32,000 nt of DNA from Propionibacteriaceae bacterium (lineage in GTDB: Bacteria > Actinomycetota > Actinomycetes > Propionibacteriales > Propionibacteriaceae): contig JAIRQE010000014.1 in NCBI GenBank assembly GCA_031256725.1, forward strand, positions 1 through 32,000. Reading direction: 5' to 3'. Positions 340 to 29,009 of this stretch are shown here, piece by piece. The position numbers and the translations under genes were made by a program. The notes under the pieces are model-generated. The model was not told where the DNA came from. It did not search any database and worked only from the letters and a program-made list of their open reading frames with translations. How positions within the stretch are numbered: position 1 is the first letter of the stretch; the number at the start of each line of letters is the position of its first letter.

Positions 340-445
340 GAGAGGGTGGGGTACATCTACTGTGGACCGTTTTCCCGAACGGAGGAATTGTTTCCACAGG
401 AAACAACTGCGCGAGTGCGTCCAGAAAGATGTACCCCACCCTCTC
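340..445. repeat. Palindromic repeat element, copy A (106 bp, perfect 19 bp terminal inverted repeat)
   Basis: GAGAGGGTGGGGTACATCT (340-358) is the exact reverse complement of AGATGTACCCCACCCTCTC (427-445). The inner hairpin is TTGTTTCC-ACA-GGAAACAA. By eye it is ~80 percent identical to 13415-13518. Confidence 0.85.
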
Positions 446-542
446 ATCCAGAATAGAACTCTGGGTTCTGCGGTTTCACGCAGAATGACGAAGGGGAAAG
501 CGAACTATGCCATGATTGACATGTGAACTAAGGAGGGAACCA

Positions 543-1762: not shown

Positions 1763-1939
1763 ATGGCTGCACAATTTGAGGTTTACCAAGACAAAGCAGG
1801 CAAGTATCGTTTCCGTTTGAAGGCTGCCAACGGCCAAGTCGTCGCCGTAGGTGAGGCATACGAGTCGAAGTCATCAGCAATCAAAGGTTGCGAGGCTGTA
1901 CAAAGGGCCGCCAAGGACGCCAAGGTCGTCGAGGCCTAA
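1763..1939 (+). CDS. YegP/DUF1508-family small protein (58 aa, below the ORF-track cutoff)
   Basis: My own translation is MAAQFEVYQDKAGKYRFRLKAANGQVVAVGEAYESKSSAIKGCEAVQRAAKDAKVVEA. The pattern F..Y.D..G.yRfRLkA.NGe.va.gegY is typical of a single DUF1508 repeat. Confidence 0.72.
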   Translation: MAAQFEVYQDKAGKYRFRLKAANGQVVAVGEAYESKSSAIKGCEAVQRAAKDAKVVEA

Positions 1940-2229
1940 GCGCCATCCTGCAACCAAGCCAGAAGCGCAAGTACACGCCGATGTGAGTTCGTGTCCATCG
2001 GCAGGTCAGGCTTGGCAAAAATCGAGGAGATGTGTTTCTCAACCGACCCGGCTGAGAGCCACAGCGTTTCACAGATTGTCTGGTTGCTGAGTTCCTCGGT
2101 GATCGGGGCCAAGACTTCACGTTCGCGCGCAGTGAGGCGTTCCAAGGGTGATGTAGGGGAGTGGATCTCCACATAGGCTGAGAGTGCAAGTACCCTCAGA
2201 TCATCGCGTGTACAACGAAGCTCCGTCAT
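1936..2229 (-). CDS. LuxR/GerE-type helix-turn-helix protein with no receiver or sensor domain (solo, or remnant of a larger regulator)
   Basis: LTAREREVLAPITEELSNQTICETLWLSAGSVEKHISSIFAKPDL matches the GerE HTH layout. The C-terminal RRVLALLAWL resembles actinobacterial LuxR tails. The ORF is only 97 aa. Confidence 0.68.
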   Translation of the reverse strand: MTELRCTRDDLRVLALSAYVEIHSPTSPLERLTAREREVLAPITEELSNQTICETLWLSAGSVEKHISSIFAKPDLPMDTNSHRRVLALLAWLQDGA

Positions 2230-2257
2230 CCTGCGCGCAGATATGGCAGGGCAAACC

Positions 2258-2328
2258 GAGCGAGGAGTCGTTTCCTCTCAGGGAAACTGCGTGAGCATGT
2301 TCGCAACAGATGTACTACCCCAGCACCC
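2258..2328. repeat. Partial, degenerate copy D of the palindromic repeat family (right ~70 nt)
   Basis: GAGCGAGGAGTCGTTTCCTCTCAGGGAAACTGCGTGAGCATGTTCGCAACAGATGTACTACCCCAGCACCC aligns with the right two thirds of copy A. Shared parts are GGAGGA, the GTTTCC/GGAAAC hairpin, CTGCG.GAG and the AGATGTAC..CCCA.CACCC arm. I see no convincing left arm. Confidence 0.5.
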
Positions 2329-3147: not shown

Positions 3148-3228
3148 TCCTTGAACTGTGAGATCCCACTGGGGACACGGATTAGCCCCAAGCTTCCATG
3201 GTGGTAATCGATGTTGATAGGAGCCGGA

Positions 3229-4362
3229 ATGACATTAATAGAATCCCCTTTGGCTGAGGTACACACCAGTCTGGGCGCCAAGTTTTCACCTTTCGGTGGG
3301 TGGGCGATGCCCGTACAGTACGCTGGCATCCTCCAGGAACACAAGGCGGTACGCGAAGCAGTTGGTCTCTTCGATGTCTCCCACCTGGGTACCTTCCTCA
3401 TCGAAGGCGAGGCAGCTGCGGACTACCTCAACACACGGGTCTCCAATGATCTGAACAAGATCACTCCCGGACATGCACAGTACACCCTCCTTCTGGATGC
3501 CAGTGGGGGAGTCGTCGATGACATGATCGTGTACCTTTTCGCCCCAGACCATGTGATGGTGATCCCGAACGCTTCGAATGCAGATGAGGTATTGAGTCGA
3601 TTGATGGATTCAAGTCCCGATCATCTGCGCTGGACGAACCGGCACACAGCAGATGGGATTATCGCTATCCAGGGGCCGCGAAGCGCGGAAGTCATGGAGG
3701 CAGCCTTCGGACACAACTCCTCTGTTCGGGGGCCTGATCTGTCCCATGGAATGGGGTACATGAGTTTTGAACGGGCTGACCTGGTCGCTGAGTCCGTCTC
3801 CGTCTCGTTGACAGTGTGCCGCACGGGGTACACCGGAGAGCTTGGGTACGAACTCGTCGTACCAGCCGCCGACATGAAAACTGTGTGGACCTGGCTCATG
3901 GAACGAGGCGAGGCATATGGGATCCAACCCTGTGGTCTGGGAGCCCGTGACACCCTCCGTACGGAGATGGGATACCCCCTTCACGGGCAGGATCTTTCCC
4001 TAGAGATCTCTCCAGTTGAGGCACGAGTGGGGTGGGCTGTTGGCTGGAAGAAGGATTCCTTCGATGGTGATGAGGCGGTACGTACCCAACGCCGTCATGG
4101 GGTAAGTCGTACCCTGATGGGCATTCGTGCCTGTGGTCGGGGGATTCCGCGAGCGCACATGTCAGTCATCGACGAGAATGGGGAAAAGATCGGCGAGGTT
4201 ACCTCTGGCACCTTCTCCCCAACCCTCAATGTGGGAATCGGGCTCGCCTTCCTACCGCCTGAAACCCAGATCGGTGACAAGGTCACAGTTGAGGTACGCA
4301 GCCGCCACGAAGAGTTTGAAGTGGTCAAGCTCCCATTCGTACCCAGCCATGTGAGTAACTAA
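3229..4362 (+). CDS. gcvT: Aminomethyltransferase, glycine cleavage system T protein
   Basis: Contains GWAMPVQY, FDVSHLG, CRTGYTGELGYEL and SGTFSPTL motifs. I preferred ATG 3229 (MTLIESPL) because AGGAG lies 6 nt upstream, rather than ORF start 3211. Confidence 0.9.
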   Translation: MTLIESPLAEVHTSLGAKFSPFGGWAMPVQYAGILQEHKAVREAVGLFDVSHLGTFLIEGEAAADYLNTRVSNDLNKITPGHAQYTLLLDASGGVVDDMIVYLFAPDHVMVIPNASNADEVLSRLMDSSPDHLRWTNRHTADGIIAIQGPRSAEVMEAAFGHNSSVRGPDLSHGMGYMSFERADLVAESVSVSLTVCRTGYTGELGYELVVPAADMKTVWTWLMERGEAYGIQPCGLGARDTLRTEMGYPLHGQDLSLEISPVEARVGWAVGWKKDSFDGDEAVRTQRRHGVSRTLMGIRACGRGIPRAHMSVIDENGEKIGEVTSGTFSPTLNVGIGLAFLPPETQIGDKVTVEVRSRHEEFEVVKLPFVPSHVSN

Positions 4363-13009: not shown

Positions 13010-13402
13010 ATGCAGATCCTGCTGGTTTATACGCCCACTGCCATCCACCTGATAGACAACGTACTCCAAGGTTTCAAAGATCGTGGCGCAAACCTTGTAG
13101 CAGTAGAGCTTCCTAAGGTGGCTGAACAAGACTTCGAGAATCAACTAGAAGGTCACAACCTTCTCATTTATGTCACCACCGAAGTGGAGGGATTCTCAGC
13201 CCCAGACCCTCGATTGATCACGATCACCCGAAAAGCCACCGACCACCTAATCCCTGTGATCCTCATAACCTCCCAATGCCGTATCTCCACCCGTGAACTA
13301 AGAACCTGGGGCATTGAAGCTGCCTACGAAATAACCTCCCCCCAAGAAGCCCAAAAAGTAGCCCAGACCTGGGTTGCTAAACTACCACGTCATGATTCAT
13401 AG
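13010..13402 (+). CDS. Hypothetical protein (130 aa) with an alternating beta/alpha pattern
   Basis: A clean ORF on the same strand as its neighbours. Hydrophobic strands (MQILLVYT, NLVAVEL, LLIYVTT, IPVILITS) alternate with helical segments. I recognise no catalytic motif. Confidence 0.55.
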   Translation: MQILLVYTPTAIHLIDNVLQGFKDRGANLVAVELPKVAEQDFENQLEGHNLLIYVTTEVEGFSAPDPRLITITRKATDHLIPVILITSQCRISTRELRTWGIEAAYEITSPQEAQKVAQTWVAKLPRHDS

Positions 13403-13414
13403 AATGCAATAAGG

Positions 13415-13518
13415 CAAGGGTGGGGTACATCTGTTCAAAACCGCTCCCTGAACGGAGGAGTTGTTTCCAAAGGAAACAACTGCGCGAGTATGTTTTGAAT
13501 AGATATATCCCACCCTTG
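13415..13518. repeat. Palindromic repeat element, copy B (104 bp)
   Basis: CAAGGGTGGGGTACATCT (13415-13432) pairs with AGATATATCCCACCCTTG (13501-13518) with 2 mismatches. The inner hairpin is TTGTTTCC-AAA-GGAAACAA. It shares GAACGGAGGA and GGAAACAACTGCGCGAGT blocks with copy A. Confidence 0.85.
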
Positions 13519-13640
13519 TCCTACCTAAGCGGAATTTCAAAATAGATGTATCCCGTACCCAAGTGGAAAAGTTGTTGAGGAACTGTGCGAGAGCATTCGA
13601 GATAGATGTACTTGTACAAGAAGAGCAAGGTATACAAAGA
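13519..13640. repeat. Degenerate tandem partial copies of the repeat's right half
   Basis: AATAGATGTATCCCGTACCC (about 13541-13560) and ACTGTGCGAGAGCATTCGAGATAGATGTAC (about 13590-13620) echo ACTGCGCGAGTATGTTTTGAATAGATATATCCCACCC from copy B. Confidence 0.45.
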
Positions 13641-21338: not shown

Positions 21339-21421
21339 CGCTACAGGCTATCTTAGAAACCGGTACTTGTCGTCATACATTGTCATTCTGCACGAAGTTG
21401 CATCGTGATGTCTTTGTTGTG

Positions 21422-21437
21422 GATGTACCCCACCCTC
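21422..21437. repeat. Isolated terminal arm of the palindromic repeat family (copy C)
   Basis: GATGTACCCCACCCTC matches the right arm of copy A 16 of 16. A possible degenerate partner, GGCGGGGTAGTCATC, lies at about 21325-21339. Confidence 0.55.
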
Positions 21438-27710: not shown

Positions 27711-27740
27711 CCCGTCTTGATCATCACATTTTACCGTACT

Positions 27741-27804
27741 GTTAGTTGGGGTCGGTTCGTTTTTGAGATGAAAATGTATCAAAAACGAACCGGCCCCACC
27801 TAAC
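27741..27804. promoter_or_regulatory. 24 bp near-perfect inverted repeat with a 16 nt spacer in the divergent region upstream of msiK
   Basis: GTTAGTTGGGGTCGGTTCGTTTTT (27741-27764) pairs with AAAAACGAACCGGCCCCACCTAAC (27781-27804). 22 of 24 positions are complementary, and one mismatch is G-U only in the plus-strand RNA. Confidence 0.7.
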
Positions 27805-27917
27805 ACATAAATTGGGACTTGACGTATCGCAGAAACATGGAAAACTGTTAGGGAAGGGATTTCACCCTCCACTAAGGATCGTCGGGCACGTACCGCCCGT
27901 GGAAAGGTTATATCGCT

Positions 27918-29009
27918 ATGGCTACAGTCAAGTTCCAAGGCGCAACACGCATCTATCCCGGTTCAGATCATCCCGCTGTCGATAAACTCGATTTGGAAAT
28001 CGGCGACGGCGAATTCATGGTCTTGGTCGGACCTTCCGGATGCGGCAAGTCAACATCTCTACGTATGCTCGCAGGCCTCGAAGAGGTCAACGAAGGCAAC
28101 ATCTTTATCGGTGAACGCGACGTCACCGATCTTCCCCCCAAGGACCGCGACATCGCAATGGTCTTCCAAAACTATGCTCTGTACCCCCATATGACTGTCG
28201 CTGACAATATGGGCTTTGCACTCAAGATGCAAAACGTACCCAAGGCTGAACGTGAACAGCGTGTCATGGAGGCAGCCAAGCTGCTTGGTCTCGAAGAGTA
28301 TCTTTCTCGCAAGCCGAAGGCTCTTTCCGGTGGCCAGCGCCAGCGTGTTGCCATGGGTCGTGCCATCGTACGTCAGCCTCAGGTCTTCCTCATGGACGAG
28401 CCGTTGTCGAACCTTGATGCGAAATTGCGTGTGTCGACCCGTACCCAAATTGCGGCACTTCAAACCCGTTTGGGTGTCACAACGGTGTACGTGACCCACG
28501 ACCAGGTTGAGGCTATGACCATGGGTCATCGTGTTGCGGTTATGAAGGACGGCCTTCTTCAGCAGGTCGATTCCCCGTTGACTTTATACCACCAGCCCGC
28601 CAACCTCTTCGTTGCTGGCTTCATCGGTTCCCCGGCTATGAACCTTCTTACTGGAAGGATCGTTGAGGGTGGAGTCCAGATGGGTGATTACGTCGTACCG
28701 GTCTCCCGTGAGGTTCTTGAGAAGGCCAAGGGTGAGGAGACTCTGACCCTCGGTATTCGTCCTGAGACCTTCTCGGTGGCAGACAAGGGTATTGCTGTGG
28801 ATGTTTCCGTGGTTGAGGAACTGGGTTCCGATACCTACCTGTATGCAACCCAGTCCGGGTTGGCTGATGACGAGAAATTGAAGGCAGCCCAGATTGTTGC
28901 CCGTGTCGCTACCGGGTCGCCTGGACGTCAAGGTGGCGCAGTACGACTGGGCGTTGACCCCGAGAAGATTCACATCTTCTCCAACGAGTCGCAGTTGCGT
29001 CTATCGTAA
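27918..29009 (+). CDS. msiK: Carbohydrate ABC transporter ATP-binding protein, MsiK/UgpC/MalK type
   Basis: Walker A GPSGCGKST, Q-loop, signature LSGGQRQRVA, Walker B VFLMDEPLSNLD, and a MalK-type C-terminal regulatory domain. Confidence 0.92.
   Translation: MATVKFQGATRIYPGSDHPAVDKLDLEIGDGEFMVLVGPSGCGKSTSLRMLAGLEEVNEGNIFIGERDVTDLPPKDRDIAMVFQNYALYPHMTVADNMGFALKMQNVPKAEREQRVMEAAKLLGLEEYLSRKPKALSGGQRQRVAMGRAIVRQPQVFLMDEPLSNLDAKLRVSTRTQIAALQTRLGVTTVYVTHDQVEAMTMGHRVAVMKDGLLQQVDSPLTLYHQPANLFVAGFIGSPAMNLLTGRIVEGGVQMGDYVVPVSREVLEKAKGEETLTLGIRPETFSVADKGIAVDVSVVEELGSDTYLYATQSGLADDEKLKAAQIVARVATGSPGRQGGAVRLGVDPEKIHIFSNESQLRLS

Follow-up and report, generated by a model that had tools for sequence, protein, structure and literature searches.

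What maintains a palindrome of about 105 bp that recurs between unrelated genes of an uncultured actinobacterium, its arms changing from copy to copy while staying complementary? Such a repeat could be a small mobile element, a family of structured RNAs or the residue of a purely mutational process. The stretch of 32,000 nucleotides analyzed here (the window) is chromosomal DNA of a Propionibacteriaceae-like lineage. The nearest relative of its GalK is only 74% identical, and the best named relatives carry the label 'MAG: Propionibacteriaceae'. The genes around the repeats have housekeeping functions: galK, a glpQ-like gene, gcvT, nrfHA with cytochrome c biogenesis genes, DUF3043, erpA, ilvD, ksgA, argF and cysS. 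Between 5387 and 12102, the window encodes a cytochrome c nitrite reductase cluster (nrfH-like and nrfA-like genes) followed by DsbD-like, ResB, CcsA-like and thioredoxin-like genes, a set that is, to our knowledge, uncommon in Propionibacteriaceae. Additional DNA of the same genome came from Logan contigs of sequencing run SRR14710887, which match the window without any difference in the regions that overlap. One of these contigs, L118, continues for 4.3 kb past the window end, bringing the total surveyed to ~36.3 kb.

We confirmed that the repeat family is real and consists of dispersed, palindromic, non-coding units of ~105-120 bp (Table 1). The original prediction described two full copies with common arms, sequence blocks and an inner hairpin, and both are present in the window where it placed them (copies A and B). 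It had also anticipated further copies, and a third full one (copy C) lies ~0.9 kb past the window end on L118. The surveyed 36.3 kb contain three full copies plus about five fragments. In its general architecture, the element is a stem of 28-34 bp that closes an asymmetric core of ~50 nt. The core carries an invariant hairpin of 8-10 bp, TTGTTTCC-loop-GGAAACAA, which lies between the motifs GAAYGGAGGA and CTGCGYGA and reaches 10 bp in copies B and C. Copies A and B have in common the block GAACGGAGGA, the hairpin TTGTTTCC-N3-GGAAACAA and the block CTGCGCGAGT. As originally proposed, the inner stem is kept while its loop varies, reading ACA, AAA or ATGT depending on the copy.

Table 1. Full copies, fragments and component parts of the repeat family. 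Positions refer to the window unless a contig is named.
Feature	Position	Strand	Evidence or remark
Copy A, full	340-445	+	inverted-repeat call; fold; covariance model, 133 bits on +, 42 on -
Copy A arms, GAGAGGGTGGGGTACATCT / AGATGTACCCCACCCTCTC	340-358 / 427-445		complementary at 19/19 positions
Copy A inner stem segment, TGGAC / GTCCA	363-367 / 419-423		past a small internal loop
Copy A asymmetric core	368-418		
Copy A inner hairpin, TTGTTTCC-ACA-GGAAACAA	388-406	+	stem identical in A, B and C (16/16, all pairs)
11-mer TCCAGAATAGA, two bases past copy A	447-457	+	read by eye; statistically unsupported
Left-arm-less copy (core and right arm; inner stem shortened to 6-7 bp)	2256-2328	+	nhmmer E 3e-7
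Core fragment in gcvT (3211-4362, +)	3704-3735	-	nhmmer E 0.003-0.008
Copy B, full	13410-13523	+	inverted repeat; fold; covariance model, 132 bits on +, 51 on -
Copy B arms	13410-13441 / 13492-13523		32 nt each, 84% complementary
Copy B inner hairpin	13461-13479		
Solo remnant (right inner stem and right arm), TTTCAAAATAGATGTATCCCGTACCC	13535-13560	+	nhmmer E about 2; by eye
Degenerate core and right arm (left arm missing), GGAAAAGTTGTTGAGGAACTGTGCGAGAGC...GATAGATGTACTTGTAC	13565-13617	+	nhmmer E 0.02-0.05
Solo arm, GGATGTACCCCACCCTC	21421-21437	.	1 mismatch to the arm 15-mer
Copy C, full	L118, 3896-4019	+	nhmmer E 2e-25; covariance model, 140 bits
Copy C arms, GTGGGAGGAGTGGGATATGTCTGTTCTGGAC / GTCCAGAATAGACATATCCCACTCCTCCCAC	L118		32 nt, 97% complementary

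The three copies differ in how the stem is built and in where they sit. Copy B has an uninterrupted stem of ~32 bp, with one C.A mismatch plus G.T pairs, and begins 8 nt past the stop codon of the ORF at 13010-13402. Copy C differs from A and B at many arm positions, each of which is matched in the opposite arm. By eye, its arms are extended by a GTGGGA-type unit that is duplicated in both. It lies on the + strand, flanked by two minus-strand genes and antisense to both. Flanking sequence is unconserved between copies, apart from 11 nt directly to the left of the palindrome that are common to A (330-340, ATGCGACAAGG) and B (13404-13414, ATGCAATAAGG; consensus ATGCRAYAAGG) and absent at copy C. 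These 11 nt may be part of the element or a favored target site. The 11-mer TCCAGAATAGA beside copy A has the same letters as the junction of right inner stem and arm in copy C, and is possibly a tiny right-end remnant.

Arm pairing was assessed in an alignment (A1) of copies A, B and C, in which columns 13-40 form the outer helix with columns 93-120; every statistic on the family rests on these three full copies. Across the 28 pairs of the outer helix, 96% of cells are paired and 10/28 pairs are altered on both sides, a covariation reached by none of 500 shuffles. Sliding the partner columns by one to three positions lowers the pairing to 41-58%. Independent decay of the arms would be expected to leave 74% paired (sd 5%), and the observed 96% was reached in 0/20000 simulations. 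Sequence conservation is distributed in the opposite way: between copies, the arms are ~69% identical, the core ~83% (Fisher p = 0.006) and the inner hairpin stems 100%. Over the whole element A and B are 77% identical, slightly below the 80 percent first estimated. From the excess of arm pairing over expectation and the higher identity of the core, the element can be described as an asymmetric center of conserved sequence, carried by a stem whose shape is kept while its sequence varies. This variability extends to the tips. The copy-specific closing pairs of the original prediction, GAGA/TCTC in A and CAA/TTG in B, are as it reported, and the outermost 4-9 bp are unlike in every copy (GAGA, GCAA, GTGGGAGGA). 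Arm-like sequences are too frequent for chance: the arm 15-mer has five sites at two mismatches or fewer, a number reached in 0/100 shuffles, with ~1.1 expected even when three mismatches are allowed. The full copies also fold far better than shuffled controls, with z-scores between -8 and -14 whichever strand is folded (-8 to -9 for A and B, whether as RNA or DNA).

Covariation of this kind had been taken to argue for selection on a folded structure. The strength of the covariation stands, with 10 of 28 pairs changed on both sides and 96% pairing against 74% expected, but selection is not the only process that could produce it. Template switching during replication can make and keep perfect stems, including multibase compensatory changes (PMC8794818). 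Consistent with such a process, the arm changes are clustered, as in AAA/TTT versus TGG/CCA at columns 36-38/95-97 and again at columns 13-16/117-120. Together with the two-arm duplication of copy C, this clustering suggests that template switching contributes to the family. It suggests a contributing mechanism rather than a full alternative, a point to which we return below.

Alongside the full copies are truncated and decayed ones. The partial copy originally marked at 2258-2328 is indeed a truncated member of the family, although its left arm is missing and its inner stem is shortened, and its fold is no better than that of shuffled sequences. This truncated copy sits at the junction of a deletion that is specific to the lineage and took out a sensor kinase along with the receiver domain of a response regulator. 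What is left of the response regulator is its C-terminal GerE domain, a 97-aa ORF (1936-2229, minus strand) that matches residues 173-249 of a protein on L123, the contig of the most syntenic relative. At the position of window site 1936-2416, relatives keep the two-component system, with a response regulator of 213-250 aa and a HisKA_3 sensor kinase. The region 13519-13640, originally listed as one partial copy, does hold family remnants, in the form of two fragments (13535-13560 and 13565-13617), the second without a stable fold. Nested insertion, with A and B landing in older copies, was considered and dropped, as in-silico removal of a full copy gained no score. The solo arm at 21421-21437 lies between two minus-strand genes, for an MFS transporter and an LMW phosphatase, and, as the two arms are palindromic partners, it could be read in either orientation.

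One fragment contradicts the original view that all copies are intergenic. It lies in frame within gcvT, on the minus strand, and is 28-30 nt long; its reverse complement, CCCCGAACAGAGGAGTTGTGTCCGAAGG, matches copy B at 24 of 28 positions (3704-3731). A match of such quality is expected 1.7e-4 times by chance across 36 kb. The fragment coincides with a lineage-specific, in-frame insertion of ten codons at 3706-3735, FGHNSSVRGP, which is absent from two relatives and from three solved homologues. Two other strings in gcvT downstream of the insertion, GGGGTACAT and GTTTTGAAC, were treated as chance, and their codons align with those of homologues.

Beyond this genome the family has no detectable relatives in the collections searched and is not in Rfam. 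Six loci that together span ~71 kb, from relatives whose GalK is ~72-74% identical, contain no copy. On L123 the intergenic DNA is unalignable with that of the window and yields no pair of empty and filled sites, because the intergenic DNA of these relatives is too diverged for such a comparison. A concatenated folE-folP-folBK query, aimed at genes left of the window, retrieved fused multi-domain proteins only. We scanned 185,579 species genomes for a 17-mer of the core and JGI metagenomes for an arm 14-mer followed by a gap and GGAGGA, both by exact match, so that diverged relatives would be missed; the 59-kb JGI contig from which the window comes was masked in the metagenome set. The genomes gave 87 single hits in unrelated taxa, by estimate about the chance number, none with an arm or inner hairpin, and the metagenomes gave 26 hits, none of them element-like. 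A scan of viral contigs with the inner hairpin returned three chance hits, and blastn against plasmid and phage collections returned zero matches. At gathering thresholds, an Rfam scan of the window finds msiK only, and permissive scans of copy A and L118 return only mir-9186, below threshold (35 bits against 73) and on both strands, in agreement with the original remark that the repeat could not be matched to a named element. Within the sample itself, the independent Logan assembly of SRR14710887 is interrupted exactly at copy B's inner hairpin (13460-13479, the end of L115 and the start of L001) and not in A or C. This break suggests that further copies with a B-type core exist in the SRR14710887 sample.

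The window and its relatives contain other structured sequences. The msiK RNA (RF01747, 42 bits against a threshold of 33) occupies 27857-27914, directly upstream of the ORF at 27918-29009; such a motif is usually found in front of a gene for an msiK-type ABC ATPase. Just upstream of it, at 27740-27805, is a 27-bp hairpin with 93% complementarity, TGTTAGTTGGGGTCGGTTCGTTTTTGA / TCAAAAACGAACCGGCCCCACCTAACA, whose GGGGNCGGTTC motif resembles the inverted repeats of a MITE-like family of the relatives. That family occurs on contig L122 (12668-12836, 13550-13696 and 20938-21121) and on L116 (13407-13490). It has inverted repeats of up to 37 nt (GGGGACGGTTCTTCTGTCTCA...TGAGACAGAAGAACCGTCCCC) around a center of 110-130 nt or as a bare hairpin, and is bordered by short repeats of the CCATGGCTCA type. 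Another palindromic repeat of the relatives, with GGAATGTTGG, is found at 895-954 and 7761-7820 on L122 and at 4830-4922 on L124, and is unrelated to the present family.

The reading that we favor, with about an even chance of being right, is that the repeats represent a non-autonomous hairpin element of the MITE/REPIN/ERIC type that is specific to this lineage and is recognized by its shape and its apical core. The fragments, the solo arms, the gcvT piece, the copy at a deletion junction, the absence from relatives and the assembly break all fit a non-autonomous repeat element, and the family has probably spread by mobility. Given that conservation is lower in the arms than in the core and that target duplications were not seen, recognition of a hairpin rather than of a terminal sequence would fit best. 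Such an element would be handled as a folded single strand, either as DNA during replication or transposition or, if transcribed, as RNA, and the agent that copies or maintains it would recognize the stem by its shape and the apical core by its sequence. Enzymes of the HUH/Y1 class (IS200/IS605-RAYT type) read hairpins in a similar way, and a DDE transposase would read terminal inverted repeats instead. A reading like that of HUH/Y1 enzymes would fit both the lack of duplications and the shared + orientation, including that of copy C. The structural requirement would then keep the arms complementary, helped or mimicked by template switching within the hairpin.

Several features that might have placed the element more directly were looked for. 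The original prediction proposed a check for target-site duplications, and no consistent one emerged: the flanking direct repeats are 3, 4 and 5 nt long and lie at inconsistent offsets, which is chance level over 289 boundary combinations. No transposase is annotated among the ORFs and called genes of the ~36 kb, and no gene for RAYT, TnpA or TnpB was noted in that stretch. The three copies have no conserved ORF. A candidate small ORF (GGAGGA followed by TTG) would encode 22 aa in A and 13 aa in B, is frame-shifted in C and has only 2-3 nt between Shine-Dalgarno sequence and start; its frame is not conserved because the loop is 3 nt in some copies and 4 nt in another. A tRNA-derived (SINE-like) origin was set aside, with no tRNA in the window.

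A tentative and, we think, fairly unlikely alternative is that the repeats form a multicopy structured-RNA family, whether as genes for small RNAs or as cis-acting modules such as processing, stability or termination hairpins. The apical core would then be the functional surface, the helix would be kept by selection on the RNA fold, and the fragments would be dead duplicates. The element is not a gene-specific riboswitch, in line with the original judgment that one is unlikely. A core that is more conserved than helices that covary is also the signature of a functional RNA. The orientation of the fold adds to this case. The + strand is more stable than the - strand in all three copies (-60.1 versus -59.7, -62.5 versus -56.4 and -83.3 versus -76.5 kcal/mol). 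Wobble-type pairs occur at four pair positions on the + strand (G.U at 32/101 in B and C; U.G at 45/57 in A, B and C; G.U at 13/120 and 24/109 in B) and at one on the - strand, and so favor the + strand only mildly. A covariance model scores the copies at 132-140 bits on + and 42-68 on -, a gap that is mostly due to the asymmetric core. A possible third helix, CUUCC/GGAGG, would form on the + strand alone; it depends on U.G pairs and is not backed by covariation. Each of the five copies that can be oriented is on the + strand, although the two-sided p is only 0.06 and most genes of the window are also on +. Taken as a whole, the strand evidence is weak but consistent in pointing to the + strand. 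The position of copy B just past a stop codon would also suit a terminator hairpin that lacks a U-tract.

Much else argues against an RNA. It is unusual for a functional RNA of bacteria to contain a near-perfect duplex of 28-34 bp, which would be a target of RNase III, and the stem described here is such a duplex, very long and nearly perfect. No consensus sigma-70 promoter or intrinsic terminator was found at a conserved position around A, B and C, and apart from the 11 nt to the left of A and B the flanks are unconserved. Copy C, on + between minus-strand genes, is antisense to both neighbors, which shows an orientation independent of local transcription. The truncated copies, the solo arms and the antisense fragment in gcvT resemble the debris of mobile DNA, and the duplication read by eye in both arms of copy C would be hard to obtain through selection at the RNA level. 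Finally, an Rfam match is absent and the nearest relatives are without the family.

A classical MITE, that is, a deleted IS derivative mobilized by a DDE transposase that binds terminal inverted repeats (GGGTGGGGTACATCT), with the covariation reflecting sub-families from different parents, appears quite improbable. Its size, inverted repeats, lack of an ORF, intergenic site and stem-loop fit the published description (PMC3184786), and the relatives hold other clear MITE-like families with 37-nt inverted repeats. DDE transposons, however, conserve their tips, and here the outermost ends are the least conserved part; arms at 69% against a core at 83% are the reverse of the usual MITE pattern. 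A consistent target-site duplication is missing, and the three copies would need three parents, with both ends of each changed in step.

We would give similarly little weight to a more speculative possibility, that of a hairpin-recognized mobile or RNA system of a type undescribed in Actinobacteria, in which a putative enzyme or the element's own transcript reads the apical core. A sequence-specific core (GAAYGGAGGA, the 10-bp hairpin and CTGCGYGA) would sit on a long stem free of sequence requirements, and each round of copying might rebuild the second arm from the first, for example through fold-back synthesis. Such regeneration of an arm would explain the near-perfect stems, the two-arm duplications, the abortive copies without a left arm and the missing target duplications. 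Least probable of all is that the repeats are old, functionless quasi-palindromes re-symmetrized by template switching or hairpin-directed repair, so that they may be inert leftovers or simple host structural palindromes with purely mutational compensation: the clustered arm changes and the two-arm duplication read by eye in copy C speak for such repair, but it would leave unexplained both an asymmetric core at 83-100% identity against arms at 69% and the family's arrival at several dispersed loci, and copy B retains unrepaired C.A and G.T positions.

If the family is mobile, as we favor, it would be an actinobacterial short repeat propagated by its shape and apical sequence rather than by a terminal sequence, and its conservation pattern, opposite to that usual for MITEs and REPINs, would point to a mobilizing enzyme in an uncultured lineage. 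The repeats are associated with changes to the genome: a truncated copy marks the deletion of a two-component system, and a core fragment became ten codons of GcvT. Two implications reach beyond this family. 'Compensatory' covariation could arise by templating at the DNA level and is, alone, no proof of a functional RNA, and repeats such as these break up metagenome assemblies, as in the Logan contigs.

The comparison with known systems shows a mixture of familiar and unfamiliar features. MITEs are described as being of ~105 bp in size, with terminal inverted repeats, no ORF, an intergenic location and a long stem-loop (PMC3184786). Our element agrees in that it is ORF-less, 105-120 bp long and folds as a long stem-loop, and departs in inverted repeats that are only 69% conserved with variable tips and in the missing target duplication. 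RAYT/REP systems are mainly proteobacterial. REPINs are REP doublets that form hairpins and are moved by RAYT transposases, with terminal REPs more conserved than a spacer that keeps just the hairpin (Bertels & Rainey; PMC3337134). They resemble the present family as intergenic hairpin units of ~90-110 bp whose halves stay complementary while their sequence drifts and whose singlets decay, and they too are described without target duplication, a folded single strand being the proposed substrate. The conserved part, in contrast, is the terminal REPs in REPINs and the center here (core 83%, hairpin 100%, arms 69%). REPs are also short imperfect palindromes themselves, often with a GTAG or CGTC tag (PMC3733652), and the arms here, by eye, are not: the only palindrome in GGGTGGGGTACATCT is GTAC, and a GTAG or CGTC head is absent. 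The two defining features of the REP/REPIN class that we tested, palindromic arms and a terminal sequence more conserved than the spacer, thus both fail, which speaks against the REP membership considered in the original prediction.

ERIC elements have a conserved central inverted repeat. ERIC/IRU, Correia, RUP, SPRITE, CIR and RU-3 are MITE-like repeats of ~105-130 bp (Delihas 2011; PMC3184786). The present family shares with these repeats its size class, a long imperfect palindrome, an intergenic location, long stem-loops, internal-deletion variants, partial copies and an abundance restricted to a lineage. It differs in having no TA or other target duplication, unconserved tips and an actinobacterial host, to which the reported hosts of those families are unrelated, and it has no sequence match in the plasmid and phage collections or in Rfam. 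The palindromic elements of Rickettsia (RPEs) can reportedly sit in frame within protein-coding genes, as Ogata and colleagues are said to have described in 2000, and the core fragment here is likewise a 10-codon, in-frame insertion, in gcvT. RPEs are palindromic repeats of about 105-146 bp (PMC3184786), and the present family differs from them in that only a 30-nt fragment lies in a gene, all full copies are intergenic, and the sequence and host are unrelated. PATEs, which derive from IS200/IS605 elements, have separate left and right subterminal hairpins and the present element has one central hairpin plus an end-to-end stem, and its copies share no evident tetra- or pentanucleotide target on their left side. 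It nevertheless resembles PATEs and the IS200-IS605 (HUH/Y1) group in the lack of a target duplication, in hairpins as recognition elements, in a strand-specific orientation bias, and in a small conserved hairpin of 8-10 bp with a loop of 3-4 nt, the size that those enzymes bind. As a class of element, dispersed short palindromic repeats are well known; what is unusual in this one is the reversed conservation pattern, the strong arm covariation among few copies and the in-frame core fragment in gcvT.
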